A stretch of DNA of 64,000 nucleotides from Armatimonadota bacterium (GTDB lineage: Bacteria; Armatimonadota; Hebobacteria; CAIYQO01): assembly GCA_038248345.1 (NCBI GenBank), contig JBBRXO010000006.1, positions 10-64,009 on the forward strand. The letters run 5' to 3'. This document shows positions 18,036 through 61,895 of the stretch, in pieces (positions within the stretch are counted from its first letter, which is position 1; every line of letters begins with the position of its first letter). Under the pieces are notes generated by a model. The model was not told the DNA's origin. It worked only from the letters and a program-made list of their open reading frames with translations, and did no database searches. Position numbers and translations under genes: made by a program.

Positions 18036-18056
18036 TTGGAACTTGAAACTTGAAAC
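18036..18056 (+). promoter_or_regulatory. tandem heptanucleotide tract (TTGGAAC)(TTGAAAC)2 directly upstream of the DUF721 gene ATG
   Basis: Seen in sequence. Ends 6 nt before the ATG. Inverted GTTCAA hexamers at 17993-18012. Confidence 0.6.
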
Positions 18057-18062
18057 TAAATT

Positions 18063-18608
18063 ATGGCTCAACTCAAACTCGATGAAGTGCTGGGAACGCT
18101 GCTGAAGAACAAGCGTTTCGCAGCGAATTTGCGGCGCGTGATGGTGTTGACCATGTGGAAACAGGTGGTAGGGCCGCTCATCGCGCAGAAAAGCTGGCCC
18201 GTGCGTATCAGTGATGGCGTGCTCCAGGTTCGGGTGTCCTCGCACGCCTGGTGCGATCAGCTGCACCTGCTCACCCCACAGATACTCGAGCGCTACAATA
18301 CCCTCCTCGGGCGCGCCTCGGTAAAGAAGATAGAATTCCGCCAGGGCAGTCGCAGCAAGGTGGGCGTTGAAGACCCCCACAGCCTGCACCCACTCTTCCC
18401 ACCTCGTGGAGAGGCCATACCCGCCGCACCGCCGGAGACAGACCCGCTGGCCCACATCACCAACCCCGAAGTCCGCGCCGCCCTCGCCCCTGGCTTCGCC
18501 CGCCTTCGCGCCACCCGTGCCTGGAAAGAAGCCCACGGCTGGACCCGCTGTGAAGCCTGCGGCAAAGTATACCATCTCACCGCAGGATGTCCGTGGTGTA
18601 AAAAATAA
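18063..18608 (+). CDS. DUF721 (DciA-like) domain protein with C-terminal CxxC zinc ribbon
   Basis: 181 aa. The DUF721-like N-terminal region fits better than the overlapping 230-aa minus-strand ORF. The ATG is preceded directly by a (TTGRAAC)3 tract. Confidence 0.6.
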   Translation: MAQLKLDEVLGTLLKNKRFAANLRRVMVLTMWKQVVGPLIAQKSWPVRISDGVLQVRVSSHAWCDQLHLLTPQILERYNTLLGRASVKKIEFRQGSRSKVGVEDPHSLHPLFPPRGEAIPAAPPETDPLAHITNPEVRAALAPGFARLRATRAWKEAHGWTRCEACGKVYHLTAGCPWCKK

Positions 18609-18732
18609 CTGGTATACGGTTATCTCCCTCGAATAAAAATCTTCTGCCTCTTGTCTTCTGAGCCCTTTTTCGGGTAACTTATAGCTGGTAAAAATTAACA
18701 CTGGCTAGTATGTTACTGAAGGAATTTGATTA

Positions 18733-20733
18733 ATGGGCCAATATCGCGATTCGCAGTTTTCTTTACGCGGATTCTCGCAGAAAATACATGACTTCTTTCT
18801 GGGTTCTCCCCTCGCATCATCGGCACAACTGGAGCACCGCCTACCGATCCTGCTGGCATTGCCGGTATTTGCTTCCGACGCCGTTTCTTCGGTAGCCTAC
18901 GGTACCCAGGAAATCCTTTTGCAATTCCACGACAAGGCGACAGATAAATTCTCTCCCGTGGCGATCCCATATCTTATGGGTATCAGCTTTGCTATCGCTA
19001 TCTTAATTGTCATCGTGGGGATGAGCTACCGCAAAGCTATCCACCTCTACCCTGCTGGCGGTGGCTCCTACACGGTAGCACGCGACAACCTGGGTACCTT
19101 ACCAGGCTTGATGGCGGCAGCGGCATTATTTATCGACTATATATTGACAGTGGCAGTGAGTATATCATCCGGTGTGGAAAACCTGGTAGCGGTGGTGAAA
19201 CCGTTGAGTGGGTATATGGTCATATTTGGCTATGGCGTTCATATCCCTATCCTGCTGTGCATATTATTGGTATTCCTTATCATGCTGGTAAATCTGCGTG
19301 GCACTAAGGAATCGGGGTGGTTCTTTGCCATCCCGGCATATAGCTTCGTCTTCATGCTCTCATTGGCTTTGATCATGACCGCATATCGGTATTTCACCCA
19401 TAGCTGGGTTCCTGATGAAATGCAGATAATGGCAACGGAAAACACTCTCAAAGGTGTTGGCTTGCTGGTAATTTTGAAGGCCTTCTCCAGTGGGTGTTCC
19501 GCCCTCACAGGTGTGGAGGCCGTCAGCAACGGTATCTCGGCATTTGAGAAACCAGAGGCCAAAAACGCCGCCAAAACGTTGACGATACTGATGGTGATGC
19601 TGGTGGTGCTCTTCCTCGGGTTAGGCGCCGCAGCCGTATATTTCCATGCCTTGCCGGTAGAAGGTGAGACCGTAATCTCGCTGGTGGCACGCCATAGCTT
19701 CGGCGGCTCGCAACTGGGAGTATTCGCCACCTATGCACTCTCCATCACCACCCTCTCCATCCTGATGATCGCCGCCAACACCAGCTTCGCCGGCTTCCCC
19801 CGGTTAATCGCCATCGTCGCCAAGGATGGATACGCGCCAAAATCCTTCGCCAACCTGGGCGAGCGGCTGGTACACAACCAGGGTATCTTCATGCTCGCAG
19901 TTCTATCGATTGTGTTGATTATCGCGCATGACGCCAAAACCAATGCGCTTATTCCGCTCTACGCCGTGGGCGTATTCCTCTGCTTCACCCTCTCGCAGTC
20001 TGGCATGGCGAAGAAAGCACATGAGATGCAGGAGAAGGGTTGGCGTTCCACCATGGCGCTAAACATCTTCGGCGCGGTGATTACTGGCTTGGTGACAATG
20101 GTGCAGGCGATCAGCAAATTCTCCGAAGGCGCCTGGCAGGTAGTCGTATTCCTGCCTCTCCTCGTCTCCATCTTCTATGTCATACATCGACATTATAAAT
20201 GGTTCGACAAAGTTATGATTGTCGGTAAAGATGATTACAATCCACTAGCCGAAGCGCCGCGTCCTTCACTGGTGCTGGTACTCATCTCTTCAGATATCCA
20301 TCGTGGCATCTTGGAGGGGCTGGATTGCGCGCGCTCCTTCATCGCCTGTATACCAGGCAGTGAGTTACGCGCCGTGCATGTGGAAATCGATGAAGTGAAG
20401 ACCGAACGTTTGCGGCTAAAATGGGCACAACTGGTGACACCGTACATGGGGAGCGAGATCAAGCTGGAAGTCATACAGTCACCATATCGCTTTATTTTAG
20501 AGCCAATCCTGGAGTATATCGATAGGGTAGACCTGCAACATATCAATGATAACGTCATCATCGTGTTGCCGGAGTTTGAGACCGGGTCGTATTTCACCCA
20601 GTTGCTCCACAACTTCACTGCCAACCGCATGCGCCGCGAGCTGCTCAACCGCCCGCACATCACCGTGGTCAGCAAACGCTACTTCATGCGCAATAAAGCC
20701 TGGCGTGAGGGGCGCGGGGGGTTAGTGTATTAA
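18733..20733 (+). CDS. kimA: KimA-type (YdaO-like) APC-superfamily high-affinity K+ importer with C-terminal cytoplasmic domain
   Basis: 666 aa. Near-identical blocks to B. subtilis KimA (DYILTVAVSIS, LKAFSSGCSALTGVEAVSN, IPLYAVGVF..FTLSQSGMA). Confidence 0.85.
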   Translation: MGQYRDSQFSLRGFSQKIHDFFLGSPLASSAQLEHRLPILLALPVFASDAVSSVAYGTQEILLQFHDKATDKFSPVAIPYLMGISFAIAILIVIVGMSYRKAIHLYPAGGGSYTVARDNLGTLPGLMAAAALFIDYILTVAVSISSGVENLVAVVKPLSGYMVIFGYGVHIPILLCILLVFLIMLVNLRGTKESGWFFAIPAYSFVFMLSLALIMTAYRYFTHSWVPDEMQIMATENTLKGVGLLVILKAFSSGCSALTGVEAVSNGISAFEKPEAKNAAKTLTILMVMLVVLFLGLGAAAVYFHALPVEGETVISLVARHSFGGSQLGVFATYALSITTLSILMIAANTSFAGFPRLIAIVAKDGYAPKSFANLGERLVHNQGIFMLAVLSIVLIIAHDAKTNALIPLYAVGVFLCFTLSQSGMAKKAHEMQEKGWRSTMALNIFGAVITGLVTMVQAISKFSEGAWQVVVFLPLLVSIFYVIHRHYKWFDKVMIVGKDDYNPLAEAPRPSLVLVLISSDIHRGILEGLDCARSFIACIPGSELRAVHVEIDEVKTERLRLKWAQLVTPYMGSEIKLEVIQSPYRFILEPILEYIDRVDLQHINDNVIIVLPEFETGSYFTQLLHNFTANRMRRELLNRPHITVVSKRYFMRNKAWREGRGGLVY

Positions 20734-20746
20734 AGGGCCTGCGTAC

Positions 20747-20782
20747 CCTGGGAGCGCCAATCTCCAGATTGGCGCTCCCAGG
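20747..20782. terminator. bidirectional terminator: perfect 17-bp-arm palindrome between convergent kimA and pepA
   Basis: cctgggagcgccaatct-cc-agattggcgctcccagg. Confidence 0.7.
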
Positions 20783-20789
20783 TTATTCA

Positions 20790-22280
20790 TCACCCCAAAA
20801 TATACTCCACCAACGCCCGTACTGGCACCCCGGTGCAGCCTTTCGGCTCATAGGCGCGTTCTTTGTCGAGCATACTGGTGCCGGCGATGTCCAGGTGGGC
20901 CCAGGGGGTGTCGCCGACGAATTCCTGCAGGAAGACGCCGCCCTGGCTGGCGCTGGCTTCACGGCTGGCGCTATTTTTGATATCGGCGATATCGCTATCG
21001 AGCATCTCGCGGATCTCCTCATCGAGCGGAAGATTCCACATGCGCTCACCCACCGTATCACCAGCGGCGCTGATAGCGTCAATGAGCGGCTGATTATTCC
21101 CCATGATGCCCGTCCAACGACGCCCCAACGCTACCATGCAACCGCCCGTGAGTGTGGCAATATCGATAATCTCATCGAAGCCGCCGTCAGCGGCAACGGA
21201 GAGAGCATCAGCGAGGACCAGGCGGCCTTCTGCGTCAGTGTTATCTATCTCGATAGTCATGCCGTTGCGCGCGGTGAGCACGTCATCTACTTTGTAGCTG
21301 GTACCGGAGACCATATTCTCGCACACGGGCAAAAAGCCCGAAACCACCACTCCCGGACGTAGTTTGGCGATGACGCCCAACACACCGAGTACGGCGGCGG
21401 CGCCAGCCATATCCGTCTTCATGTGGCGCATATGCTCCGCCGGTTTCAGCGACAGGCCGCCGCTGTCGTAGCAAAGACCTTTGCCCACCAGCGCCACTCG
21501 CTTGCTGGCGCCATCAGGGGTATAGTCCACCCGAATGAAACACGGCGGGTTAGCGCTGGCGCGGCCCACTGCTAGCAGGCAGTTCATGCGCTCTTCCACC
21601 AACTTCTCACCACTCCAAATTGTACACTGCAGCCCCAGCGCTTCCGACATATTGGTCGCATACTCGGCGAGGAACTGCGGAGTAACGACGTTAGGCGGCT
21701 CGTTGGAGAGGTCACGGGTGACATTAACCGCCGAGGCAATGACAGTTCCCTTGGATACTCCAGCCTCGATATCAGCGATTTTCGCCGCATCAAGCTCCAC
21801 CATGATGAGCTTGGCTACCGGCACCTCTTCATTTTTGCTCTTATATTTGCTGAAGCTATAGTCACCCAGCAACGCACCTTCGGTCACCGCCTGCGCGCAA
21901 CAATCAGCAGGAAGCCCGGCGATTCCTGCGCCGTGCAATATGGTAACTACCGTATTAGCCTTCACCTTCTTCGCTGCTTTAATGGCAGTGGAGGAAACCT
22001 GGCGAATCTGCTCCGCTCCGAATTTCTCGCGTTCGCCCAATCCTACTACTAGCACACGGGTGGCGAGAATTTTACCGTGGGTATCCAACAACAGCATACT
22101 ATTGAGCTTACCTTTGAAGTCCTGTTCGGCGATAGCCTTGCTGATCCATCCTCCGAGCGCTGCATCCACGGCACCGGTGCCGCCACCCGGAGCGGTAACG
22201 CCCGCAAATAGGTTCACAACTAATAAATCGCAACCAACCTGCACCAGATCGCCCTGCATTACTGATATATCCACCTTCAT
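20790..22280 (-). CDS. pepA: leucyl aminopeptidase (M17)
   Basis: M17 motifs VGKGLCYDSGG, NTDAEGRL. Start set at the second ATG (MKVDIS), which has an AGGGAGGAG RBS; the ORF extends to 22292. Confidence 0.9.
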   Translation of the reverse strand: MKVDISVMQGDLVQVGCDLLVVNLFAGVTAPGGGTGAVDAALGGWISKAIAEQDFKGKLNSMLLLDTHGKILATRVLVVGLGEREKFGAEQIRQVSSTAIKAAKKVKANTVVTILHGAGIAGLPADCCAQAVTEGALLGDYSFSKYKSKNEEVPVAKLIMVELDAAKIADIEAGVSKGTVIASAVNVTRDLSNEPPNVVTPQFLAEYATNMSEALGLQCTIWSGEKLVEERMNCLLAVGRASANPPCFIRVDYTPDGASKRVALVGKGLCYDSGGLSLKPAEHMRHMKTDMAGAAAVLGVLGVIAKLRPGVVVSGFLPVCENMVSGTSYKVDDVLTARNGMTIEIDNTDAEGRLVLADALSVAADGGFDEIIDIATLTGGCMVALGRRWTGIMGNNQPLIDAISAAGDTVGERMWNLPLDEEIREMLDSDIADIKNSASREASASQGGVFLQEFVGDTPWAHLDIAGTSMLDKERAYEPKGCTGVPVRALVEYILG

Positions 22281-22380
22281 CTCCTCCCTCATTTGTGGTT
22301 AAGCTTTGCTGAAATAATAACATATCTGCGCGCTGAAAGTAAGGTTATCAGGGGGTAATTGCAAAAACCATTTCTCGCTA

Positions 22381-22475
22381 GGATTGAAATCCCGGCTGCG
22401 TGGCATTAAAATGCCCGTCGTCCGCCTACGCGGGCGACCGGCACGAAGTGCCCTGCAGCCGGGACTTTAGTCCCC
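22381..22475. other. compact multi-hairpin structured element in the pepA / rapZ divergent intergenic region
   Basis: 9-bp outer stem cccggctgc/gcagccggg enclosing three 5-6-bp hairpins (ggcat-taaa-atgcc; gtccgc-ctac-gcgggc; ggcac-gaa-gtgcc). Flanked by ggatt-ga-aatcc and gggact-tt-agtccc. Confidence 0.4.
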
Positions 22476-22636
22476 AGCTGAATAACGGGGTTTTACAATC
22501 ACCTTAGCAGGAATGTTATGCAGATTGTTCTCTCATTGTCACACTAACACTCTGCGATTGGCTATGCCACCCTCCCCAAAAACCCGCTAATCTGCTAAAC
22601 TGGAGGGGTAGTAAATTTAATGTCTGGGGTGCCGTC

Positions 22637-24843: not shown

Positions 24844-24857
24844 TCGGTGGATGTACG

Positions 24858-38412: not shown

Positions 38413-38545
38413 CGCCCCATGAATGGGACTTTACCGGGGGAAACAAGCCCCATTCATGGGGCGCATTACGATAGCCCCGTCCTTCAGGGCGGGGAATGGG
38501 GCAGACGGACTTAAACACTCTAAATCAGCCTTGGAACTTGAAACT
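38413..38545 (+). repeat. dispersed composite repeat (family C): 15-bp-stem hairpin, CCCCATTCATGGGGCGCA core, CCCCGTCCTTCAGGGCGGGG hairpin, AACACTCTAAATCAGCC, then TTGGAAC heptads
   Basis: Sub-segments recur at 54450-54515 (inverted; about 27-bp and 20-bp matches) and 63082-63114 (27/33 match). Confidence 0.65.
38531..38544 (+). promoter_or_regulatory. tandem heptanucleotide tract (TTGGAAC)(TTGAAAC) upstream of a 22-codon small ORF
   Basis: Seen in sequence. Confidence 0.55.
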
Positions 38546-38564: not shown

Positions 38565-38633
38565 ATGAAAATTGCACTATACGCCCCGATAAAAAATGTG
38601 GTAAAACAAGATGTTCTGGCGATTTTGGCGTAA
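38565..38633 (+). CDS. candidate 22-aa small ORF / leader peptide (MKIALYAPIKNVVKQDVLAILA)
   Basis: ATG 9 nt after CAGGAAAA. Heptad tract upstream. Perfect terminator hairpin immediately downstream (38648-38690). About 300 nt upstream of the pdaD operon. Confidence 0.35.
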   Translation: MKIALYAPIKNVVKQDVLAILA

Positions 38634-43426: not shown

Positions 43427-44188
43427 ATGTCATACGCAATTGACCTGACCGGGCAAGTAGCCCTGGTCACTGGCAGCCGTCGGGGCCTGGGCAAGGCCAT
43501 CGCTGTGAAACTGGCCGAGGCTGGCGCCGATATTATCATCAACGATATCGAGCCGGGCCGCGAAGAAGCTGAGGCCACCGCCGCAGAGATCTGCGCCATG
43601 GGCCGCCGTGCTATCGCCCTCTGTGGCGACGTCTCCAAGTCCGAGGAAGCCACTGCCCTCATCGAACAGGGATGGGCTGAGATGGGCAAAATTGATATCC
43701 TGGTGAACAACGCCGGTATTACCCGCGACAACCTGCTCATCCGTATGACGGATGACGAATGGCAGACTGTCATCAACATCAACCTCTCCGGTGCCTTCTA
43801 CTGCACACGCGCCGCCGCCAAGCGCATGATGAAGGCCCGCTACGGTCGCATCATCAACATGGCCTCGGTAATCGGGCTGATGGGCAATGCCGGGCAGACC
43901 AACTACGCCGCCAGCAAAGCGGGCATCATCGGCATGACCAAGGCGAATGCCAAGGAACTGGCGGGCAGAGGCATCACCGTCAACGCCATCGCCCCCGGCT
44001 TCATCATCAGCGCCATGACGGACAAGCTCACCGCCGAGCAGAAGCAGAAGATGGTCGACATCATCCCGCAGAGCCGCCTGGGCACCGCCGACGACGTCGC
44101 CAACGCGGTACTGATGTACACCAGCAAACTGGCCGACTACACCACCGGCCACGTATTTAACGTGGATGGCGGAATGGTAATGGAGTAA
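43427..44188 (+). CDS. fabG: 3-oxoacyl-ACP reductase
   Basis: 253 aa. SDR with TGSRRGLG cofactor motif, NNAG, YAASKAG catalytic motif. Confidence 0.9.
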   Translation: MSYAIDLTGQVALVTGSRRGLGKAIAVKLAEAGADIIINDIEPGREEAEATAAEICAMGRRAIALCGDVSKSEEATALIEQGWAEMGKIDILVNNAGITRDNLLIRMTDDEWQTVININLSGAFYCTRAAAKRMMKARYGRIINMASVIGLMGNAGQTNYAASKAGIIGMTKANAKELAGRGITVNAIAPGFIISAMTDKLTAEQKQKMVDIIPQSRLGTADDVANAVLMYTSKLADYTTGHVFNVDGGMVME

Positions 44189-44233
44189 GTCGCTAGTCTG
44201 CTAGTCGCTAGTCCTGACCTGATGTAAATTACG

Positions 44234-44270: not shown

Positions 44271-44306
44271 TTTTAGATGTTGAAATCAGGACTCGTGACT
44301 AGCGAC

Positions 44307-45791
44307 TTACTCCTTCTGTCCGCTTAGGAACTGGCCCCAGTGGGTATCTTTGGCGAAGTCTAGCAGGTTGTAATAGGGGCCGTTGGTTAGATGATTGAAG
44401 GATAGTCCGTTAGGCACGTATATGCTGATGCCATGCGACTTTGTGTGGTAGGTGCCGGTGGCGTTTGTTATTACGACATTGTTTACCGCAGTTTTTACAG
44501 CTGTAGCGGCAGTTTTGGCACCGTTATTTTGCACGTTCAGCGATATCTGGTCGGCGTAGTCATATAGGTCTTTGTATTCGGTATAAGACGGGCTACCAAA
44601 AAATTCAGCGTTATTACGAGCGGTTTTCAGCGCGGGCGCTTCCGCGGTCGAAATCCCCTGCAAGGCAACAGCGAGGCTATCCACGGCGACGGCCAGCTGT
44701 GGTAGTTTCGCCATTTCTACCACCGAGTGGGTGAGGAGCGTCTCGTATGAGGGATAATATTGTACCGTCTGCTGGGCGATGGCAGTGGCGAAATCGCGCG
44801 GAGCCATCGCCGGATTATTGGCGAGGGAGGTGAGCCAAGTATTGTAGAGATACCCTGCCCCCGGCACATTCTCCTCGGACGCAACTAAATAGTTACAGTT
44901 GTTGCGTATCTGGTATCCCACCTCAAGCATCTGCATAAGACAGGCATCCATAGCGACGATATCCAACGGCGGATTGGAGGCCAACCCCAGGGGGAGATCC
45001 TTGCCGGAGATACTGCTGCCGTATTCATCGTCCCAGGAGATCGCACGCGGTTGCGCCATTACAGGAGTAGCCAGTGTGCGTGCACGCCAGCCAGTGCCGT
45101 GATCCCACAGCACTACCATATAATGCTCGGCCGGGAAGGTACTTTTACCCCAGGAGATGAAGTCGGCCAATTCGGCCGCTGAACCCATATTGCGCGAACC
45201 AAGATCATCTACTACTGGTGAAGTGGTAAAAGAGGTAACTGTACTGGGGTCATTATCATGAACAATAGTAAAGCGCTTGGTGCCCACCCATGTGCCCGCC
45301 GCAGCCGGCCTGCTACTGGCAAGGCGCCCTAGCTCAACTGCTACAGTTACTTGCGGGTTGTCTGGCGCCATCTCCATTTGATTCAAATTGTCGACGCTAT
45401 AGGTTTCCAAATTATTCTTGGCATTGAGAAAAACGAGGATTGTCCATTTACGCGCTACCGCTGTCAGTATGACGTCAGACGGGGTTGCCGTAACATCTGT
45501 TACTACACTCACCTGTATGGTTTTAGCGGAGAAACCGTTTGTGGTGATGAGTAGAGTATGTACGCCCACCGGAACGTTTTTGAGGGTGTAGCTACCGTCA
45601 CTAGCCGTAAGCGAGCTAATCGTCGTCCCCTGCACACTCACCAGTGCCTGCGAGATGGGCACCCTTCCAACGATATTCAACACTTTACCAGTAACGCTGC
45701 CAGTGTCAGGACCGACAGGGCCACCACAACCGGCAATCACCAGCAGCAGTAATAAACATAGCGCCAAGCCAACTGTATATATGAAACGCAT
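44307..45791 (-). CDS. clostripain-family (C11) cysteine peptidase lipoprotein with N-terminal CarbopepD_reg-like domain
   Basis: Lipobox LVIAGC; WDHGTGW (catalytic His region) and AMDACLMQ (catalytic Cys region). Confidence 0.72.
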   Translation of the reverse strand: MRFIYTVGLALCLLLLLVIAGCGGPVGPDTGSVTGKVLNIVGRVPISQALVSVQGTTISSLTASDGSYTLKNVPVGVHTLLITTNGFSAKTIQVSVVTDVTATPSDVILTAVARKWTILVFLNAKNNLETYSVDNLNQMEMAPDNPQVTVAVELGRLASSRPAAAGTWVGTKRFTIVHDNDPSTVTSFTTSPVVDDLGSRNMGSAAELADFISWGKSTFPAEHYMVVLWDHGTGWRARTLATPVMAQPRAISWDDEYGSSISGKDLPLGLASNPPLDIVAMDACLMQMLEVGYQIRNNCNYLVASEENVPGAGYLYNTWLTSLANNPAMAPRDFATAIAQQTVQYYPSYETLLTHSVVEMAKLPQLAVAVDSLAVALQGISTAEAPALKTARNNAEFFGSPSYTEYKDLYDYADQISLNVQNNGAKTAATAVKTAVNNVVITNATGTYHTKSHGISIYVPNGLSFNHLTNGPYYNLLDFAKDTHWGQFLSGQKE

Positions 45792-46723: not shown

Positions 46724-46885
46724 AATTTCATCCTTTTGTATTTGACATATGGAAGATACATCTGTACCATATCTACGTTATCGGTAATAATTATTACCGA
46801 TAACTGCCAATACCTGTCATATTTATTAACGATTTTGGCCATTATCTGTAATAATTATGACATATAATGGCATTATTAGGGAGAG

Positions 46886-46950
46886 TTACAATAACGCGCC
46901 ACGGCGGGCGGAATCAATAGTTATAACGCGCCACGGCGGGCGCGGGCTAC
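46886..46950 (-). repeat. REP family A cluster (2 copies, inverted relative to the right-hand cluster), left flank of RAYT
   Basis: aacgcgccacggcgggcgg ... aacgcgccacggcgggcgcgggctacag. The reverse complement of CTGTAGCCCGCGCCCGCCGTGGCGCG contains the restored RAYT stop codon. Confidence 0.8.
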
Positions 46951-47473
46951 AGAATTGAATCTACGATAGCTGAATATGGATACTGTTGCCAATCCTCCAC
47001 GATTCCTTTTCGCACTGGATTTTTCAAAATATAATTTATCGTTTCGTTGATTTCACCGTCATGTCGCAGGGCATGATCATAAAACTACGTTGCCAGAGTT
47101 TTCCACTACCACCATGCTTCCACCATATCTGGGATGTCGTATACGATTTAAAATCCTCTATAGCAGTCAGTACATTTTCTATCGTTCCACCGACTGCTCC
47201 CATATTACGATATTCAGTTATCGTCTCACGAATCTGCACTAGGAAATGCAGGTGATCTGGCATCAAACAATAGCAAAGAAGGTAAAATTCATGCTTTTTA
47301 CGACGCCACAACAACGATTCAATTACGCCATTTGCTATCTCATCATTTAAAAATGGCTTCTGATGCTGACTGGCATTGATTGTAAAGAAAAATTCTGTAC
47401 CACTATATGTATACTGCTCAACAGACAAGCGATGTCGCTTGGTAATAATACGGCCATCATTACGATCGTTCAA
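46944..47473 (-). pseudogene. REP-associated tyrosine transposase (RAYT / TnpA_REP, IS200-like HuH), interrupted by a -1 frameshift
   Basis: ORF 47036-47473 carries the HuH motif YCLMPDHLHFLV and WQRSF. The expected C-terminus (FYDHALRHDGEINETINYILKNPVRKGIVEDWQQYPYSAI) continues in another frame. One extra T in the minus-strand T4 run (plus strand AAAA near 47081-47084) would restore it. The restored ORF ends with TAG inside the REP at 46944. Flanked by inverted REP clusters. Confidence 0.75.
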
Positions 47474-47519: not shown

Positions 47520-47612
47520 ATCTGTAGCCCGCGCCCGCCGTGGCGCGTATTCGTAACCCGCGCCCGCCGTGGCGCGAATCTGTAACCCGCGCCTGCTGTG
47601 GCGCGCATTTGT
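47520..47612 (+). repeat. REP family A cluster (3 tandem copies at 29-bp period), right flank of RAYT (BIME-like)
   Basis: ctGTAGCCCGCGCCCGCCGTGGCGCGta / ttcGTAACCCGCGCCCGCCGTGGCGCGaa / tctGTAACCCGCGCCTGCTGTGGCGCGca. 5-nt linkers are too short for CRISPR spacers. Confidence 0.8.
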
Positions 47613-50812: not shown

Positions 50813-51103
50813 TGTGGCACTCCTTAATGAGAAAAGAGTTAGCAGTTAGTTTGATTGCTAACTACTAACCCTGCTGAAAAATCTGATCTGTTATTTTTTT
50901 CCAATTCCACCACGAAGTGGTGGTGGAATATAGCCCAGGGCGTAAGCCTTGGGATTGATTTTATCTATATTGCATCTCACCCCGAAGGGGTGACGGAAGA
51001 GTAGTCCACCACCACTTCGGGGTGGAATTAAAACTAAACTCTCTGACCCGGCGCTTACGCACCGGGCTATATTCCACCACCACTTTGTGGTGATATTCAA
51101 TGA
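50813..51103 (-). promoter_or_regulatory. highly structured 291-nt ileS 5' leader with attenuator-like terminator; candidate T-box-type or novel riboswitch, or an inserted MITE
   Basis: About 45-bp inverted repeat (50908-50960 vs 51040-51093). Several C(UUCG)G-loop hairpins on the transcribed strand (from ccaccacGAAGtggtggtgg, tcaccccGAAGgggtga). Hairpin GUUAGUAGUUAGC..CUAACUGCUAAC followed by UCUUUUCUC about 15 nt before the AAGGAG RBS. Confidence 0.5.
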
Positions 51104-54431: not shown

Positions 54432-54449
54432 TTCTTTTCTCCTTCGATA

Positions 54450-54515
54450 ATAGTTCCAAGGCTGATTTAGAGTGTTCAAGCCCGTTAGCCTAATTCCCCG
54501 CCCTGAAGGACGGGG
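54450..54515 (-). repeat. family C repeat copy (inverted) in the copZ / peptidase intergenic region
   Basis: agttccaaggctgatttagagtgtt and ccccgccctgaaggacgggg are reverse complements of the segments at 38474-38545. Confidence 0.65.
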
Positions 54516-54600
54516 AGTAGAGATAATCGTCAACAAATTTTTATCCCCAAATAATGAAGCTCACTTCATTACTGATTCCTCGTATGAACATTTTTTTAAC

Positions 54601-54621
54601 TTGGAACTTGGAACTTGGAAC
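54601..54621 (+). promoter_or_regulatory. tandem heptanucleotide tract (TTGGAAC)3, 18 nt upstream of the peptidase MA-like gene
   Basis: Seen in sequence; followed by TAATGTCGTTATACTAGC and the ATG. Confidence 0.6.
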
Positions 54622-54639
54622 TAATGTCGTTATACTAGC

Positions 54640-55602
54640 ATGGATATGAGATTATTTATAGCCATATTGGCGCTCTTTGCCTGCGCATTATTCTGTCTGG
54701 CGCTATCCTGGGAGACATCTCCGGGGCGCGTGGTGGTGGTCAGCGTACATCCGGGTGAGGAGAGCGTCGCCCGGCTGGTGGAATCACTGGCGGAAAGTGA
54801 TGTTCCGCGCATTGCCGCCACATTGGGAGTTGCACTGCCGGGGCCATTTGAGGTGTACGCCTATACAGATGGGGCGGAGTTCATGACCGATGCCGGACGC
54901 AACCCCTACCTGCGCGGGGTCTCCTACCGCCCCAGCGGGGCCATCCGCGTGAATGCCACCACAACGGTTAATGAACTGCGCCGCACGCTAGCGCACGAGC
55001 TGACTCATAGCCTGCTGAATCAACTCCTCGGTGATCATATCAGCATACTGCCGCTCTGGGTGGATGAGGGGATAGCCGGGCACTGCTCCGACCCGATAGC
55101 GCCGGAGAACCTGCAGGCTGCCGCGCAGCAGATGCACCAGCAAGGAGTGCTGACATTGTACGAGATGGAGCACGGCTTTGGAGATGATCATAACAACAAT
55201 GCCGCCTACCTGCAAAGCCGTGCGATGATCGCCTGGTTGGAATATAATCATCCGGGAGCCCTGCGCAAACTGCTAGCGCGCATGGCAGACGGCGAATACT
55301 TCCCCGCCGCACTGCAAGCCACCACCGGGCTAACCGCCGAAGAATGGCTGAAACGCTGGCAACAAGGAATACCATTCTGGATAAATCTGATACCGATATT
55401 GAACTCCCCGGTAATCTTCGCCCCCTTTGCCATCCTAGTGGTGATAATAGTAATCCTGCGCGAGCGCAAACGCAAAGCAGAGGAAGAAGCAGAAGCGATG
55501 CTGGAAGAAGAGCCCGGGGAATTAACCGATGAGGAAGATGACCCGGAAGATGATCTGCTGGAGGACGAAAAGGCAATTGATGAGGAGATGGGGAAACTCT
55601 AA
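54640..55602 (+). CDS. putative zincin (peptidase MA-like, HELTH) protein with C-terminal TM anchor and acidic tail
   Basis: 320 aa. Signal/TM at N-terminus, LAHELTHSL ... VDEGIAGH. TM near residue 250, then an E/D-rich tail. (TTGGAAC)3 tract 18 nt upstream. Confidence 0.5.
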   Translation: MDMRLFIAILALFACALFCLALSWETSPGRVVVVSVHPGEESVARLVESLAESDVPRIAATLGVALPGPFEVYAYTDGAEFMTDAGRNPYLRGVSYRPSGAIRVNATTTVNELRRTLAHELTHSLLNQLLGDHISILPLWVDEGIAGHCSDPIAPENLQAAAQQMHQQGVLTLYEMEHGFGDDHNNNAAYLQSRAMIAWLEYNHPGALRKLLARMADGEYFPAALQATTGLTAEEWLKRWQQGIPFWINLIPILNSPVIFAPFAILVVIIVILRERKRKAEEEAEAMLEEEPGELTDEEDDPEDDLLEDEKAIDEEMGKL

Positions 55603-55657
55603 TTGTGCCCATCGTTTCTATTTGGTTTTTACGTGGCATGTGCTATACAACAAAATT

Positions 55658-55688
55658 CCCCCTGGAACCGTAGTTCCAGGGGGAATTT
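55658..55688. terminator. bidirectional terminator between the peptidase MA-like gene and the OFOR operon
   Basis: ccccctggaac-cgta-gttccaggggg, flanked by A-rich and T-rich runs. Confidence 0.65.
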
Positions 55689-55715
55689 GACTAGTGACTC
55701 GTGACTAGCGACTCG

Positions 55716-57944
55716 TTAGAGAACCGGGTTCTCGGCACGAGCTTTCAGTTTTTCCCAGCGGGTATCGATTTCCGTCTGGATTGACTCGGCGATGTCGGCG
55801 AACTTCGGCGTGGCAATGTGGCTGAACATGGAGCCCATCTTTGCCAGTGCTTCGGTTACCGGGATCTTCGAGTTGCTGGTTTCCGGGTTGTAGTTGAGCG
55901 TAGTGACGCCACATTCCACTTCATACAGTGGGTGAATGCAGCTCTTCACTATGGCATCGATGACATCGTTGCCCTGGCCCGGATCGCAGCCCCAGTTGAG
56001 CGGGCAGGCGCTGAACAGCTTGCCGAAGGCGAAGCCGCCGTTGCGTACCGTTGCCTGCGCTTTGCGCGCTTTGGCGATCATGTCGCGGGGGTTGCTCTCG
56101 GCAGCCTGGAAGAGATACGGCGCGTTAGTGCCGCGCATGATCTCCACGATGTCCTTGGACTGCGTGAGCTTGCCGCGCTGGCCGGGGCCGACGCCCGCGT
56201 TGGAGTTGCGCTGGCCCTTGATACCGGAGTAGCAGAGCTGGCCGCCGGTGTTCATGTAGCCCTTGTTATCGTACTCGAGGAAGATGATCGGGTCATTGCG
56301 CAGCGAAGCGCCGATCAGCTGATCCATGCCGATATCATCGCCACCGTCGCCGGAGACGCAGATGAAGGTGATCTCTTCATCGGGGATCTCACCTTTCTGG
56401 CGGAAGCGGTGGTACATCTCCATGATACCCGTCGCGGTAGACGAGTTGTTATGGAAGAGGTTGTGTACGTAGGGAACCTTGTGCGAGGTGAACGGGAAGC
56501 CGGTGGTCACCACCATACCGCAACCGGTATTGAAGATGAACACCACTTTGCCGTCGATACCACGCAGGAAGAGGTTCAGGTTAGTGAAGATGCCACAGCC
56601 CGGGCAAGCAGAATGCTTGTCGATACGTGTCGGCATGTTCGAGAGCTCTTTCAGGTCGATCTTATCTTTACCGGCATTCCAGGTGGTCTCTTCGGTGGTG
56701 AGTGGCTTGAGTGTCTGTGGCAGTGCGTCGCCTTCTGGCACGCCCGACCAGGCACCATGGAAGCGACCTTCCAGCGTCTTCAGGCTGGCGTCTACATTCG
56801 GCCAGTTCATCGCCAGGTCGAACATCGGATGACCATCTTCTTCCGGACGGAAGTTAAGACCACCGATGCCGTAGACACGGCTGATCACCTGCGTGGTGCA
56901 GTTGCCGGCCTGCTGCAGTGCAGCAGAGACTTCGTTCTCCAGGTAGTTGCCCGCGCCATACTGGCTGACGCGCTCGGCGACAACCAGGTTCTTCAGGCCA
57001 CCCACTGCTGCAACCATCTCCTTTTTCGGGAAGGGGCGCAGCACTATCGGCTCAACCAGCTTGACGGACTTGCCTGCGGCTTTGAGTTCATCAACGGTGA
57101 TTTTGGCAGCTTCGGCGGCGGAGTTGAGGATGAGTAGACCGGCTTCGGCATTCTCATCGCCATATACTTCGACGAAGTCATATTTGCGCCCGGTGAGTTC
57201 AGCAAATTCAGCGAAGACCTGTGGGATCATCTCGTAGGCCTGCTGCATCTTCTGCTCCATGATGACTTTGGTGTTGATAACGTCATCGTTCATGTAGGGG
57301 CCGAAGGTGGTCGGGTTCTCGGTATCCAGCGCATTGATGCGTTTCGGCTTGGTGCCGACGAAATCCGCTACATCTTTCGGGTTAGCGAAGACTTCGATGC
57401 GGCGGTTAGCATGGCTGGTATGGAAGCCATCGTAGCCGATGATAGCGGGCAAATTGACCGCTTCAGCAATTTTGATGGCGATGATGTTCATGTCGTAGGT
57501 GGCCTGAACATTCGGGGCCAGGAAAGTGAGCCAGCCCCAGCCCAGGGTGGCGGCCAGGTCGCTGTGCCCGTTTTTGATGTTCAGCGGTGCGCTGATTTCG
57601 CGCAGGCTGAGGTTGAGCACCATCGGCAAGCCCATGCCAGCGATTGCGGGCATCTCTTCGGCCTTGAGCATCAACCCCTGTGAGGAAGTGACGTCCACGG
57701 CGCGGCCACCGGCCAGTGCCATACCGGTACAGATACCGATAGCGGCCAGCTCGGAGGTGCCGACGACGAAGCTGATGTCGCTGGTTCCGGCAGCTACTGC
57801 CTTGGCGACAATTTCACCTACTTCGGAAGATGGGGTGATGGGGTAATAGCCCTCACCATCGAATTTAATATCTAAGATCGCCTGTGCAGCGGCGTCGTTC
57901 CCGTTTCCGAGAAACATCTTCTGTTCTGCTTTTACAGCTCGCAT
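55716..57944 (-). CDS. 2-oxoacid:ferredoxin oxidoreductase, fused alpha-beta subunit (PorA/KorA plus TPP-binding PorB/KorB)
   Basis: 742 aa. N-terminal alpha-type domain (GNDAAAQA, GYPITPSSE). C-terminal beta-type TPP domain (CPGCG, GDGG). Confidence 0.85.
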   Translation of the reverse strand: MRAVKAEQKMFLGNGNDAAAQAILDIKFDGEGYYPITPSSEVGEIVAKAVAAGTSDISFVVGTSELAAIGICTGMALAGGRAVDVTSSQGLMLKAEEMPAIAGMGLPMVLNLSLREISAPLNIKNGHSDLAATLGWGWLTFLAPNVQATYDMNIIAIKIAEAVNLPAIIGYDGFHTSHANRRIEVFANPKDVADFVGTKPKRINALDTENPTTFGPYMNDDVINTKVIMEQKMQQAYEMIPQVFAEFAELTGRKYDFVEVYGDENAEAGLLILNSAAEAAKITVDELKAAGKSVKLVEPIVLRPFPKKEMVAAVGGLKNLVVAERVSQYGAGNYLENEVSAALQQAGNCTTQVISRVYGIGGLNFRPEEDGHPMFDLAMNWPNVDASLKTLEGRFHGAWSGVPEGDALPQTLKPLTTEETTWNAGKDKIDLKELSNMPTRIDKHSACPGCGIFTNLNLFLRGIDGKVVFIFNTGCGMVVTTGFPFTSHKVPYVHNLFHNNSSTATGIMEMYHRFRQKGEIPDEEITFICVSGDGGDDIGMDQLIGASLRNDPIIFLEYDNKGYMNTGGQLCYSGIKGQRNSNAGVGPGQRGKLTQSKDIVEIMRGTNAPYLFQAAESNPRDMIAKARKAQATVRNGGFAFGKLFSACPLNWGCDPGQGNDVIDAIVKSCIHPLYEVECGVTTLNYNPETSNSKIPVTEALAKMGSMFSHIATPKFADIAESIQTEIDTRWEKLKARAENPVL

Positions 57945-58873
57945 GTCAGCCCTCCCTCATTCAGTGCTTTCCCTTTTTTCGTTGTCGGGCAGACTGCCAC
58001 GCAGCGCAAGCACGCCTTACAATAGGACAGGTCGATACCCGCCATCTTCTGCTCTTTCCACACGATAGCGCCCGGATCAGCACAAACCATCAAGCATTTG
58101 GCGCAGTCAATGCAGGCTTCGCGATTGAACTCCGGTGCTGGATTGGAACGTGCGCCCGCATTGGAGCGGGTCACCGTGCAGTGTGTCAGTGCGTCAATGG
58201 CACCACCGTTGAGCATGGACAGGTAACCGATGCCACCGCGCTCTTCGGAGGGCGGTACCAGCTCGTACTTGCCGTCAGCGGCGAAGGTCTCGGTGTGCGA
58301 CTCAGCCACGGCCTGCTTATAGGCGGTGACGTTGGCGGTGATCGCCTTCGGCCAGGTGCTCTCGATGTAGTGCTGCACGTCGGCTTCCGGGAATTTTAAT
58401 ACATACGCCAGCATGGCCATCATCGGCATGTTGAGGCGACTATGCGACTCAATGGCGATGCGCTGGGCGTCAAGCGTGATAATCGTACCACTGTGCATCT
58501 GCAGCTCGTCGCGAATCTCGGCGGCGGAACGACAGGTGTTCACGATAACCGTGGCATTCTCCTGCAAGCCCTTGTTAAGCTTGAGCGGGCGAATCAGGTT
58601 TTCGCGAAAGATGCAGAGGATGTGCGGGCGGTTATTAGGGCCGCTCTCGCGCACCGGCGTGCCGAAATCGCACAGCCGTAAAGAAACATCGGTCGGGGTT
58701 CCCTTTTTCTCAGACCCGTATTTGGCGTCGTAGGCGCCATCAAGGTTGAGGTAAGAAGCCCCGATTTTGAACAGGATCTTGGCCGCCATATTGGCTCCGT
58801 CTCCGCCGATAGCGGAAAGCAGACAATTGGTGAAGCCTTGTCCGTCATAGTAGGGTAGTTGATAGTTCGACAT
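57932..58873 (-). CDS. 2-oxoacid:ferredoxin oxidoreductase, fused gamma-delta subunit (PorC plus 2x[4Fe-4S] ferredoxin PorD)
   Basis: 313 aa. Gamma-like N-terminal domain; C-terminal CIDCAKCLMVCADP and CKACLRCVAVCPT ferredoxin motifs. Overlaps the alpha-beta gene by 13 nt. Confidence 0.8.
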   Translation of the reverse strand: MSNYQLPYYDGQGFTNCLLSAIGGDGANMAAKILFKIGASYLNLDGAYDAKYGSEKKGTPTDVSLRLCDFGTPVRESGPNNRPHILCIFRENLIRPLKLNKGLQENATVIVNTCRSAAEIRDELQMHSGTIITLDAQRIAIESHSRLNMPMMAMLAYVLKFPEADVQHYIESTWPKAITANVTAYKQAVAESHTETFAADGKYELVPPSEERGGIGYLSMLNGGAIDALTHCTVTRSNAGARSNPAPEFNREACIDCAKCLMVCADPGAIVWKEQKMAGIDLSYCKACLRCVAVCPTTKKGKALNEGGLTCEL

Positions 58874-59031
58874 CCATCACTCTCCATTGTGGGGGCAGCC
58901 GCCCCCGAATCTGGCAAACAACACATTGTACCACATTTCACAAACATCGTACAACTTGAATATTGCGATAATATTTCGGGCGTGGGTTGACACAATAGAT
59001 GCATACACAGACAATAAGGACGAGAATTATT

Positions 59032-59592
59032 ATGAAATTTGAAACCTATTCGTTAAAGTTAGTCGCCGAGATTGGCGATGTGGTACACCGCGTGGATGCC
59101 GGGCAGGTGGAGACGCTGGTGGATATGATCATGCGTACCCGACGCCTATTTGTGGAGGGACGCGGCCGCTCCGGGCTGATGATGAGCGCCTTTGCCATGC
59201 GCCTCACCCATCTGGATATCCACTGCCACGTGGTAGGCGAGTCCACCACCCCCAGCCTGCAGCCGGACGACCTGTTACTGGTTGGCTCCGGTTCCGGCGA
59301 GACTGTGACGGCGGTGCAGGCGGCGAAACTGGCGAAATCCAACCGTGGTAAAGTGACGGTACTCACGTCACGCCGCTCCTCCACCCTGGCAAAGATCAGC
59401 GATCACCTGGTGATCATCCCCGCCCCGGTGCGGGAAACCGGTGACATTGAGACTGTCAGCACGGTTCAGCCGATGGGCTCCCTTTTCGAGCAAACGCTAT
59501 TAATCGTCCTCGACACCATCGTCCTGATGCTCAAAGACCGCTTGCAGCAAGATGAGCAAATGATGATCGCCCGCCACTCGAATCTGGAATAG
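59032..59592 (+). CDS. SIS-domain protein (6-phospho-3-hexuloisomerase-like)
   Basis: SIS fold motifs (LFVEGRGRSG, LLLVGSGSGET). Start set at the internal ATG (MKFETY). Confidence 0.65.
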   Translation: MKFETYSLKLVAEIGDVVHRVDAGQVETLVDMIMRTRRLFVEGRGRSGLMMSAFAMRLTHLDIHCHVVGESTTPSLQPDDLLLVGSGSGETVTAVQAAKLAKSNRGKVTVLTSRRSSTLAKISDHLVIIPAPVRETGDIETVSTVQPMGSLFEQTLLIVLDTIVLMLKDRLQQDEQMMIARHSNLE

Positions 59593-59673
59593 CCCCCTTC
59601 CCCAGAATATCACAAGCAGGTATAATCTATTTGCCCAGCGTTGACTCGCTGGAGTACCTGCATAGGAGGCCTT

Positions 59674-61767
59674 ATGCGTCTATTGCCTGCGGGATTATTA
59701 TTATTTATCGTCACTAGCCTGTTGCCAGCCTGGGGGCAAGTAGCGGATCCATTAACTGCTGCTCCCCCCACCGGGTCGGAGCGCATCATCTCTTACCATA
59801 CCGCAATTGCTATCCAATACGATGGTGGGGTGGATGTGCAGGAAGATGTAAGAGTGCTGAATACGGGGCAGAATATGCCCAATGGTTTTGAACTCTTTTT
59901 CGCCAATAGTCGCTATGATAGCAATGGGCTGCGCCGAATATTAACACCGACAATCACCCAGGTGTTGCGCGATGGAAAGCCGGAGCCATTCCTGGTAGAA
60001 AAAGGCCCCAAGGAAGCTCGACTGATAATCAGCGGCAGCGGCGGACGCTATCCGGTGGGGTTATACAATTACACCATTCGCTATAGCAGCGACGCCCAAC
60101 TATTGCAACTGCCTGACCGGGACGAGTTGCAATGGGAAGTGCGTGGCGACATCGGGGATCTGGCCGCCGATAGCGTGAGCGTGACCGTGACACTACCAGA
60201 TGGAATGTCTACCACGCAAGCTACCCCATTTGCCCGGGTGACAGCTCTCACCGGTGATACCAATGAGTTTACGATTACCCCCACCGGCGCCAACAGTTTC
60301 ACCTGTACCGCTAGCCGCCCATTGCGCGCCAACGAGAACCTTACCTTCGGCATATCCATGCCGCCGCACCTGATCCTGCGCCCGACTTCCGGGCAGGTAC
60401 AACAGCAGATACTGCGCGATAACCCGGAGATATATTGGGCCATTGCCGGTATCCTCATCGTCTTGCTATATTTCCTCCTCGTCTGGGCCGCAGTGGGGCG
60501 TGACCCCCGCGCGGGCAAAGCGACTCCGCGTTTCACTCCCCCGGCAGCGCTATCGCCGGCGGCAGTTCGCTATCTCAGGCATCTGCATCATGATGATATC
60601 GGCCTGGCTACCGTACTGGTGAACGCCGCGACACACGGGCTGGTGAAGATATCCGAATATACCGACAGCTTCCGCATTATGCGCATCGGCGATACTAATC
60701 CACCGGTGCAGCGACTGGTACTTACCGAGTTGAAACGTGGCTACATCCTCACCTACCCAGAGTTGGCGGCACGCGTGCAGCTAACTGAGGAAGTCGTTAA
60801 GAATGCGGTGCAGCAGCTTATTGACGAAGAAAGCGTGCCTATCGTAGTAAAGAAGGGCAAATTACGGCTGGAGAAAAGCCCGGACATGGAATTGCCGCCC
60901 AGTGATACACCGCTTACGGCAGAGGAATATGCGGTGCTCAACTGCCTGCTGCCGGGTATTACCCAATCAATCATGGTAGATAAGGGCGCGCAAGAGGAGT
61001 TCTACCAGGCACGTAAGGTTTTGTGCGCCTCGCTGGAGGCTGGCTATGCGAAACGCTACTTCTCTACCAACAGCAATTACTTCGGCTTCGGGTTGATAAT
61101 CGCCATCATCGGCCTGCTACCGGCGGGGATGTGGGTGATAATGACAGAAGATGATAGCTGGACACCATGGCTGGCGATGGGCGGCATGACAATCGCCGCA
61201 CTGGTCTTCTTTGTCAGTTTACTGCCTGCCTGGAAACGTGTGCTGGCCGGTGGTCGACTTCTGCGGAAAACGCTCTGGTGGTTGATCCCGGTATCATTGT
61301 TCTTCGCCGGGCTAGGCTTTGTCTGTTCTGATCTGCTACCTCCGCCGCCGATTTACCTGAGTATTTATGCCGTGCTGATGCTGGCGCTGAACATTCTCTT
61401 CCAGAACCTGCTCACTGCCATGACAATGGCCGGTCGCGCAGTGCTCGATAGCATTGAAGGCTTCCGGCATTACCTCACTGGTGAAGTGTTGTTGCCCGAG
61501 GCCCCGGTGACGAATGCCCAGTTCGAGGCCTGCCTCCCCTATGCGCTGGCGATGGATCTCCCTGATAACTGGACAGCTAATTTTGTACGTCCTGCGCACG
61601 GCGATTGTGATCCTAAACCCTACACACCCGCATGGTATAGCGGGGAGGCATGGAAGAGCGGACAACTGGGCCATTTTGTCCATGCCCTCATTGCCGACTT
61701 TGCCATGTCAATTAATGCCATACCAGATGCAGCGGCAACCGCAACGCTGGACAATTCATCGGAGTAA
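59674..61767 (+). CDS. DUF2207-like predicted membrane protein (large extracytoplasmic N-domain plus multi-TM C-terminal region)
   Basis: Start at the ATG with AGGAGG RBS (MRLLPAGLLLFIVTSLLPAWG signal). 5 TM segments in the C-terminal half. Confidence 0.55.
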   Translation: MRLLPAGLLLFIVTSLLPAWGQVADPLTAAPPTGSERIISYHTAIAIQYDGGVDVQEDVRVLNTGQNMPNGFELFFANSRYDSNGLRRILTPTITQVLRDGKPEPFLVEKGPKEARLIISGSGGRYPVGLYNYTIRYSSDAQLLQLPDRDELQWEVRGDIGDLAADSVSVTVTLPDGMSTTQATPFARVTALTGDTNEFTITPTGANSFTCTASRPLRANENLTFGISMPPHLILRPTSGQVQQQILRDNPEIYWAIAGILIVLLYFLLVWAAVGRDPRAGKATPRFTPPAALSPAAVRYLRHLHHDDIGLATVLVNAATHGLVKISEYTDSFRIMRIGDTNPPVQRLVLTELKRGYILTYPELAARVQLTEEVVKNAVQQLIDEESVPIVVKKGKLRLEKSPDMELPPSDTPLTAEEYAVLNCLLPGITQSIMVDKGAQEEFYQARKVLCASLEAGYAKRYFSTNSNYFGFGLIIAIIGLLPAGMWVIMTEDDSWTPWLAMGGMTIAALVFFVSLLPAWKRVLAGGRLLRKTLWWLIPVSLFFAGLGFVCSDLLPPPPIYLSIYAVLMLALNILFQNLLTAMTMAGRAVLDSIEGFRHYLTGEVLLPEAPVTNAQFEACLPYALAMDLPDNWTANFVRPAHGDCDPKPYTPAWYSGEAWKSGQLGHFVHALIADFAMSINAIPDAAATATLDNSSE

Positions 61768-61860
61768 ATCTCTCGAAGGAGTAAACGATGAAATTATTGT
61801 GGGATAAAAAGCTGACAGCGGAGCATCCCTTATCCACATCATTTATACCGGGGGTATGGT

Positions 61861-61895
61861 TTGGAACTTGGAACTTGGAAATTGGAACTTGGAAC
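61861..61895 (+). promoter_or_regulatory. tandem heptanucleotide tract (TTGGAAC)2(TTGGAAA)(TTGGAAC)2, 20 nt upstream of galT
   Basis: Seen in sequence; followed by TAATCATC, the GAAGGAG RBS and the ATG. Confidence 0.6.

Follow-up and report, generated by a model that had tools for sequence, protein, structure and literature searches.

How is a seven-base repeat to be read when it recurs directly in front of genes that seem to have nothing to do with one another? The question is raised by a 64-kb stretch of an Armatimonadota bacterium (positions 10 to 64,009 of contig JBBRXO010000006.1, NCBI GenBank assembly GCA_038248345.1), called the window here, which is the portion of this genome examined. 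Four tandem tracts of the heptanucleotide TTGRAAC, all on the plus strand, begin at 18036, 38531, 54601 and 61861; our check of the sequence agrees for all four with an earlier reading of the same DNA made without database searches (the sequence-only reading). That reading offered two explanations: slipped-strand contingency loci, or a cis-element shared by the downstream genes. We favour a third one, with a probability of roughly 55%: the TTGRAAC tracts and their reverse complement, GTTYCAA, are young arrays of a simple sequence repeat (SSR) with a heptanucleotide unit, situated at gene borders. We infer that they have no common function as an operator for the four genes, and that their consequences are local and differ from one locus to the next.

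The tracts stand out from the rest of the window. With up to one mismatch, TTGRAACTTGRAAC gave nine overlapping 14-mer matches against 0.09 expected, and none of 100 shuffles reached nine. Tandem Repeats Finder (TRF) called three of the four tracts as period-7 arrays at its default score, and the two-unit tract (at 38530) only once the score threshold was lowered. No Rfam match was found at the tracts in a scan of the window, the only match being Acido-Lenti-1 at 50908-50953. From the end of the tract to the start codon there are 6, 20, 18 and 20 nt (in the order given above), in keeping with the 6-25 nt noted before; the TAAT or TAAAT said to follow every tract is TATTT at 38.5 kb. By Pfam, the products of the downstream genes are DciA (the DUF721 family), Peptidase_MA_2 and GalT, as previously named, and the fourth gene, formerly listed as a small open reading frame (ORF) of 22 codons, is the stump of a dehydrogenase gene. 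That these genes are functionally unrelated is thus a point on which Pfam and the sequence-only reading concur. A Shine-Dalgarno (SD) sequence is clear at galT (GAAGGAG, between tract and ATG), takes the form AGGA at the small ORF and is missing at dciA and the peptidase gene. At a copZ-like gene, one unit of TTGGAAC on the minus strand (54453-54459) makes a fifth site, which the earlier reading did not contain.

We compared the window with relatives at 75-90% protein identity overall, giving a set of 145 kb (window included) of which about 10% is non-coding; values for single proteins are as follows. L122 and L126 belong to one 100-kb ENA scaffold, and L125 is a Logan contig (run SRR18576995) of the same organism; for this group the identities are 90% for GalT, 81% for the C11 peptidase and 76% for DciA. 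L124 and L213 come from NCBI GCA_038215455.1 (GalT 84%), L128 from ENA (DciA 87%), and L129 (peptidase 75%) and L212 (C11 peptidase 70%) from JGI. The closest named homologues of GalT and of the C11 peptidase are in metagenome-assembled genomes of Armatimonadota, and a query of metagenomes with the peptidase yielded a single relative.

The comparison of unit numbers at orthologous loci, which the sequence-only reading had suggested, could be made at only one of the four loci, the peptidase gene, where three units face three; at the other three the tract is absent from the relatives. TTGRAAC was not found at the orthologous dciA site of L126 and L128, where the same DUF1844 stop codon is followed by (AATTACG)3-4 and by GTAG-headed hairpins resembling repetitive extragenic palindromic (REP) elements. 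Likewise, the galT tract is missing from L122/L123 and L124, and L125 has an intact gene of the 2-Hacid_dh family and no array at the site orthologous to 38.5 kb. These alignments show that arrays turn over at orthologous sites. As to mechanism, they would arise, change length and vanish by local duplication, slippage and indels over short evolutionary time, and they would survive only outside reading frames, because a unit of 7 nt shifts the frame.

This turnover bears directly on the idea of a shared DNA operator, in which the four genes would be co-regulated by one transcription factor or alternative sigma factor bound at the tandem units. Within 64 kb, four or five genes do have the same heptad ahead of them, two genomes keep a single TTGGAACTA upstream of copZ, and GGAAC and GAAAC resemble the -35 elements of extracytoplasmic function (ECF) sigma factors. 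Against these points, the tract is not kept at the orthologous dciA and galT promoters nor at the 38.5-kb site, the opposite orientation is found after stop codons, other heptads occupy the same positions, and the genes downstream are unrelated in function. ECF-type (GGAAC-N16-18-CGT) and sigma-54-type (TGGCAC-N5-TTGC) promoters were sought by eye at the five sites, and no consistent -10 or -12 partner (CGT or TTGC at the due spacing) was seen. A sigma-70 promoter was also considered for dciA, galT and the small ORF; every -10-like hexamer there overlaps the ATG, and because of this the arrays at these three loci cannot be the promoters of those genes. They lie too near the ATG to precede a transcription start. 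We consider a common operator extremely improbable, and the shared cis-element of the sequence-only reading is not supported.

What an array may do locally is seen best at the peptidase gene, the only locus at which a sigma-70-type promoter was found, that is, a TTGACA-like hexamer 16-18 nt from a TATAAT-like one, both kept in relatives. The array (TTGGAAC)3 occupies 54601-54621 on the plus strand, upstream of the Peptidase_MA_2 gene. A scan with the promoter consensus picks TTGGAA-17-TATACT, made up of the middle unit (54608-54613) and a TATACT at 54631-54636 (plus strand), which is kept in three genomes and lies 3 nt before the ATG at 54640 and 9 nt before that at 54646. L125 has the identical (TTGGAAC)3 followed by TAATCTCGTTATACTAGCATGGATATG; in L129, which is more distant, the array is absent, and a single TTGGAT stands in the same register, exactly 17 nt upstream of TATACT. 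Because both the motif TTGGAA-17-TATACT and its spacing are conserved, the middle unit appears to be the -35 hexamer of a conserved promoter, and the peptidase mRNA is probably near-leaderless. The sequence-only reading was therefore right to see a -35 hexamer in TTGGAAC, at this gene. It had further supposed that a change in unit number would shift the promoter spacing; because the -35 hexamer lies within the array, gain or loss of a unit would leave a TTGGAA at 17 nt, and no spacing switch would result. On the other side of the divergent spacer, the single TTGGAAC (followed by TA) at 54453-54459 precedes the copZ-like HMA gene (minus strand, start 54431) by 21 nt and forms an inverted pair GTTCCAA...TTGGAAC with the peptidase array. 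It is kept in L125 and not in L129, and copZ has a strong SD sequence (GAAGGAG) between heptad and ATG.

The same locus is instructive about contingency loci, where frequent slippage would toggle the downstream genes on and off. Tandem repeats of two to five units beside promoters and start codons are what one would look for, their presence and unit number vary between species, and there are precedents for promoter heptads in the TTTTGAT repeats of Vibrio cholerae ctxAB and in Haemophilus influenzae hmw. However, the sole orthologous tract has three units in both genomes despite about 10-25% protein divergence, its -35 hexamer is protected from spacing changes as described above, and the arrays are short. 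The other arrays lie outside the ORFs that they might control and have no usable -10 hexamer behind them. Nor do the genes belong to the classes typical of phase variation (surface, host interaction, restriction-modification): DciA and GalT are housekeeping functions, and the remaining two are Peptidase_MA_2 and a stump. Two Logan contigs of run SRR19962012 have the same unit numbers as the window, to which they are 99.99-100% identical, and are probably not independent of it. We hold switching of this kind to be very unlikely. What survives of the contingency proposal is that the tracts are SSRs of the slipped-strand type; the spacing switch does not.

At dciA the array TTGGAAC TTGAAAC TTGAAAC (18036-18056, plus strand) ends 6 nt before the ATG at 18063, with no SD sequence. 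An inverted partner, GGTTCAA TATTCAA CGTTCAA T (17992-18013, plus strand), begins 2 nt past the stop codon of the upstream DUF1844 gene and is itself a period-7 array by TRF. The GTTCAA hexamers that had been noticed as a mirror of this tract are thus real: partner and tract are the 5' and 3' arms of a predicted intercistronic hairpin (-20.2 kcal/mol, z = -2.6), which ends 5 nt ahead of the dciA AUG. A ribosome terminating on the DUF1844 gene would open this hairpin and free the SD-less start region of dciA.

The galT array (61861-61895, plus strand; five units, the third of which is TTGGAAA) has a different setting. It belongs to an insertion of about 128 nt that is specific to the lineage and lies upstream of galT, directly past the ancestral SD sequence and ATG of the gene, and the insertion as well as the tract is absent in L122/L123 (90% GalT identity) and L124 (84%). 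In these relatives the spacer is short and carries an SD sequence, measuring 19 nt in L122/L123 and, in L124, about 50 nt. On either side of the insertion stand the ancestral ribosome-binding site, TCGAAGGAGTAAAC (61773-61786, plus strand), and an imperfect direct duplication of it, TCGAAGGAGTTAAC (61902-61915, plus strand). Because of the insertion, the ancestral galT ATG now opens an upstream ORF (uORF) of 36 codons (61788-61898, plus strand), which runs through all five units, stops at the TAA right behind the array and ends 17 nt before the present ATG (61916). The array would therefore have come to lie in a young insertion that turned the old start into a uORF, ending ahead of the duplicated SD sequence. 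The insertion also holds a perfect match to a DnaA box, TTATCCACA (61830-61838), a single occurrence compatible with chance.

The two-unit array TTGGAAC TTGAAAC at 38.5 kb (38531-38544, plus strand) lies in a deletion scar, 20 nt upstream of the 22-codon ORF (38565-38633, plus strand). We take this ORF to be the stump left by the deletion, the remnant 5' end of a 2-hydroxyacid dehydrogenase gene, because its first eight codons (MKIALYAP) match those of the gene that is intact in L125 (17116-18093). An array in such a scar would probably be without function. The first unit closes a segment of 64 nt with a hairpin, CCCCGTCCTTCAGGGCGGGG (38475-38538, plus strand), that has an inverted copy of 91% identity at 54452-54515, and both copies end in TTGGAAC just ahead of a start codon. 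A related 5' part is found at 63080-63129, and we found no further copies of the segment in the window or in the relatives' sequences searched. We also considered the tract as the 3' end of an element of the REP type or of a miniature inverted-repeat transposable element (MITE), and set this aside on seeing that copZ of L125 has TTGGAACTA without the 64-nt segment.

Arrays of this period are not confined to TTGRAAC. Over the 145 kb, TRF placed 12 of 23 period-7 arrays in the 10% of the sequence that is intergenic, while other periods were found there at about the 10% expected of them (10 of 89 arrays at period 6 and 2 of 19 at period 9). Exact arrays with 2.5 units or more were found only with period 7 among periods 7-11, and shuffled sequences had none. 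TTGRAAC is the commonest of several heptad families in the short intergenic spacers of the lineage; it is present at five sites of the window and at three of L125, and AGTCRCT at three. An array of the AGTCGCT type (44188-44217, plus strand) starts at the third base of the adh_short stop codon, and its inverted partner (44286-44307, plus strand) directly adjoins the stop of the minus-strand C11 peptidase gene. Together they supply the outer arms of a predicted hairpin of 118 nt (-56.3 kcal/mol, z = -7.5) that encloses a bidirectional terminator. Similarly, a TGACTAG/CGACTCG array (55688-55715, plus strand) stands 2 nt away from the stop of the minus-strand POR gene and adjoins a hairpin. Elsewhere in the lineage, L122 has two more arrays, at 7751-7795 and 14770-14802: (TTCCTAT)n, which lies between the SIS and DUF2207 genes, and (TAGGAAA)4, which begins with the clpB stop codon and is followed by a terminator hairpin.

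Of special interest is the spacer at which the C11 peptidase and adh_short genes converge. Its arms are of AGTCRCT (2.6-4.6 units) in the window, L212 and L213; in L125 they are GTTCCAA/TTGGAAT, around another central hairpin. All four spacers are predicted to fold into long hairpins (-50 to -92 kcal/mol). Because heptads are swapped in this spacer, the site and the seven-base period can be said to persist and the heptad sequence not. The hallmarks of intergenic heptanucleotide SSR arrays are all present here: tandem units, an excess of period 7 in non-coding DNA, recurring heptads, and a fixed orientation to starts and stops.

This last property was followed across phyla by a scan for (TTGRAAC)3 in one genome per GTDB species, which gave at least 120 loci; they are a sample and not a census, and the genes were called by a crude, longest-ORF heuristic. 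The matches listed include Flavobacterium and other Bacteroidota, Verrucomicrobiota, Planctomycetota, Pyrinomonadaceae (many), Blastocatellia, Chloracidobacterium and Desulfonema, and TTGRAAC arrays among them often adjoin arrays of other heptads. On the sense strand, 15 arrays read TTGRAAC and one GTTYCAA within 12 nt of a start codon, and 25 read GTTYCAA and eight TTGRAAC within 12 nt of a stop codon, among the 120 loci listed. In a recount of the loci listed, TTGRAAC outnumbered GTTYCAA by 26 to 5 where a start lay just behind the array, and GTTYCAA outnumbered TTGRAAC by 33 to 16 where a real stop codon lay just before it. Inverted pairs at these loci had the order 5'-GTTYCAA...TTGRAAC-3' in 38 cases and the opposite order in nine, and 97 of 135 arrays had no inverted partner. 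Sense-strand GTTYCAA thus lies at or just past stop codons and sense-strand TTGRAAC just before starts, the two often being the arms of one hairpin. The starts themselves are credible: arrays 3-12 nt before an ATG precede the genuine genes recR, trpA, tatD, purE, hscB and a MoxR ATPase gene, whose Pfam profiles start at residues 1-11.

The sequence of the unit seems less important than its length. In viral contigs, (TTGRAAC)3 was found at 36 loci and three composition-matched permutations at 25, 7 and 13, all of them far above chance. Because such permutations also form arrays, TTGRAAC is only mildly favoured, and the period matters more than the sequence.

The polarity does lend some weight to a reader at the RNA level, a ribosomal component such as S1 or an RNA-binding protein that would recognize UUGRAAC arrays in 5' leaders and set the initiation of genes poor in SD sequences. 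In several phyla the arrays end 3-12 nt before genuine starts and leave no room for an SD sequence, the strand bias near starts is strong (15 to 1 among the loci listed), dciA and the peptidase gene have no SD sequence, and the arrays, rich in A and U, show no self-complementarity. This idea has been put forward for TAACTGA in Beggiatoaceae (PMC4679880) and in a preprint on Nostoc (bioRxiv 10.1101/2022.06.06.494920). Yet galT and copZ keep the strong GAAGGAG between array and ATG, orthologous genes in close relatives manage without an array, the reverse complement is equally frequent at stops, and unrelated heptads are found in the same places. Moreover, composition-matched heptads form arrays nearly as often in the viral contigs, and the dciA array is predicted to be paired rather than free. 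On balance we regard such a reader as rather unlikely. A broader version would make UUGRAAC/GUUYCAA a punctuation common to many phyla, read by a conserved factor (the ribosome or an RNA-binding protein), or would have heptad arrays written at stop and start codons by a dedicated enzymatic process in place of polymerase slippage. The factor would recognize the one orientation at a cistron's 3' end and the other at the 5' end of the cistron that follows, coupling termination, protection of the RNA 3' end and SD-independent re-initiation. If true, punctuation or enzymatic writing would explain both why the polarity is fixed and why one heptad can take another's place at a given site; we consider it improbable.

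The paired arms raise another prospect, that arrays are the ends of MITE-like foldback cassettes, mobile or spread by copy-and-paste, in which array and inverted array enclose a central hairpin; such cassettes would insert at gene borders and replace one another. This would suit the C11/adh_short spacer, where arms and central terminator differ as a whole between L125 and the window, L212 and L213, and the galT array, which sits in a 128-nt insertion between direct duplications of 14-18 nt. The presence of the 64-nt hairpin segment ending in TTGGAAC at two loci, the TA that flanks the arms on both sides in this lineage and the fixed order of inverted pairs (38 against nine at the loci listed) would fit as well. 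On the other hand, no associated transposase is present, and for the galT insertion outside its repeat no second copy was found in the window or the relatives' sequences searched. Most arrays (97 of 135 at the loci listed) lack an inverted partner, and unit numbers differ between arms and between species, as slippage predicts. A TA target-site duplication, suggestive within the lineage, was rejected for the lack of any such signal across phyla: at the loci listed, TA behind the array and a partial unit occurs in 3%, and no other target duplication is apparent. The arrays also lie outside the GTAG-headed REP hairpins of this genome; neither REP elements, their paired form (REPIN) nor MITEs describe them. 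Cassettes of this type are, in our judgement, an improbable source of the arrays.

Several observations sit uneasily with young SSR arrays of local effect, the reading that we prefer. In 64 kb the heptad comes back four to five times, a relative has it three times in 21 kb, and it is present in many phyla; its strict polarity toward starts and stops exceeds what neutral slippage would give, so that a factor reading the RNA could be involved. Unchanged unit number in the peptidase array over about 10-25% protein divergence is unusual for a neutral SSR, for which the promoter role can account. Our reading accounts neither for the seven-base period nor for the polarity, nor for the exchange of heptads at one site; the polarity counts rest on the crude gene calls and the sample described above, and every statement at the RNA level is drawn from DNA sequence.

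Other repeats and elements were seen in the window and its relatives. Acido-Lenti-1 RNA (RF01687; 50908-50953, minus strand, 41.3 bits) lies between the isoleucyl-tRNA synthetase and S1-domain genes, with similar hairpins at 51002-51038 and 51053-51100. Three 26-nt palindromes (TTATCGGTAATAATTATTACCGATAA and variants) at 46778-46867, spaced at 32 nt, look like operators. GTAG-headed, GC-rich REP-like hairpins are found at 1320-1345, 1357-1453, 4148-4306, 46926-46953, 47521-47606 and 62960-63005; they include three tandem copies with a period of 29 nt, and the same family occurs beside dciA in relatives. At 63829-64000, AAC-rich imperfect repeats with periods of 15-33 would encode low-complexity sequence of the NNNNGY type in an ORF that continues past the end of the window. 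Finally, between its MazG-fusion and cyclase genes L126 carries an RVT_1 reverse transcriptase, a small ORF and a gene with an FRG domain (4228-6979); the window has no counterpart of these three.

How do these arrays compare with known systems? The sequence-only reading had recognized no described feature in them, and our literature search on TTGRAAC arrays found no description, returning only unrelated primer and CRISPR-repeat matches; tandem heptamers beside start and stop codons have nevertheless been reported (PMC4679880; PMC4692102; bioRxiv 10.1101/2022.06.06.494920). The closest likeness is to TAACTGA of Beggiatoaceae, some Cyanobacteria and Bacteroidetes (MacGregor, 2015; PMC4679880): many sets per genome, mostly in forward orientation and a few nucleotides before starts, often where a canonical SD sequence is missing, ahead of unrelated and partly essential genes, with a scattered phylogenetic distribution and no function assigned. 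Here the heptad is another one, and it is found in Armatimonadota as well as in Acidobacteriota, Planctomycetota, Verrucomicrobiota and Bacteroidota. Unlike TAACTGA, TTGRAAC is as common in reverse complement at stops, frequently pairs into hairpins and shares its sites with other heptads; and whereas every TAACTGA unit brings stop codons, TTGGAAC has none and TTGAAAC only TGA.

GGGAATC of Xanthomonas and GGGGAYT of Nostoc (Rehm et al., 2015; PMC4692102) resemble our arrays as heptameric SSRs strongly over-represented in intergenic DNA, with one orientation less than 50 bp upstream of ORFs and the other less than 50 bp after stop codons or overlapping them. Their inverted arrangements, like those described here, are able to form stem-loops, and most are transcribed (PMC4692102). 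These repeats are G-rich and can form G-quadruplexes, which TTGRAAC cannot. The short tandemly repeated repetitive (STRR) heptanucleotides of cyanobacteria and the long SSRs in which 7-nt units predominate, as they are summarized in later papers (Mazel, 1990; Mrazek, 2007; via PMC4679880 and PMC4692102), share genome-specific favoured heptamers, a tandem, non-coding arrangement and presumed slippage. In those accounts the arrays are often much longer than ours, and start/stop polarity is not emphasised. By the same route, heptanucleotide units are described as being in general excess among long bacterial SSRs (Mrazek, 2007; via PMC4679880).

In Nostoc PCC 7120, TTTTGAA/TTCAAAA is present as at least three contiguous heptamers upstream of many starts, and also near promoters (bioRxiv 10.1101/2022.06.06.494920). 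Deletion of such heptamers, which occur also by rec genes, changed reporter output (bioRxiv 10.1101/2022.06.06.494920); that heptad is a different one and comes with experimental data, and TTGRAAC is described here from sequence. The TTTTGAT repeats of V. cholerae ctxAB are likewise tandem promoter heptads whose unit number varies between strains, but they lie upstream of the -35 hexamer and recruit ToxT and H-NS, while the present arrays include the -35 hexamer at one locus only and point to no regulator.

By these analogies, the TTGRAAC arrays would belong to a class of heptamer repeats that is already described and mechanistically unsolved. Among long simple repeats, those with a heptanucleotide unit are the most frequent in many bacterial genomes, and neither the choice of seven bases nor the role of such arrays is explained. 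An annotator should call a tract of this kind an operator or a phase switch only on evidence from strains or reads. They can be co-opted, as at the peptidase -35 hexamer, and can mark recent rearrangements, as in the galT insertion with its uORF. To the repeats listed above, the present arrays add a further phylum and a further heptad, their coming and going within about 10-25% protein divergence, and a rule of polarity that extends across phyla.

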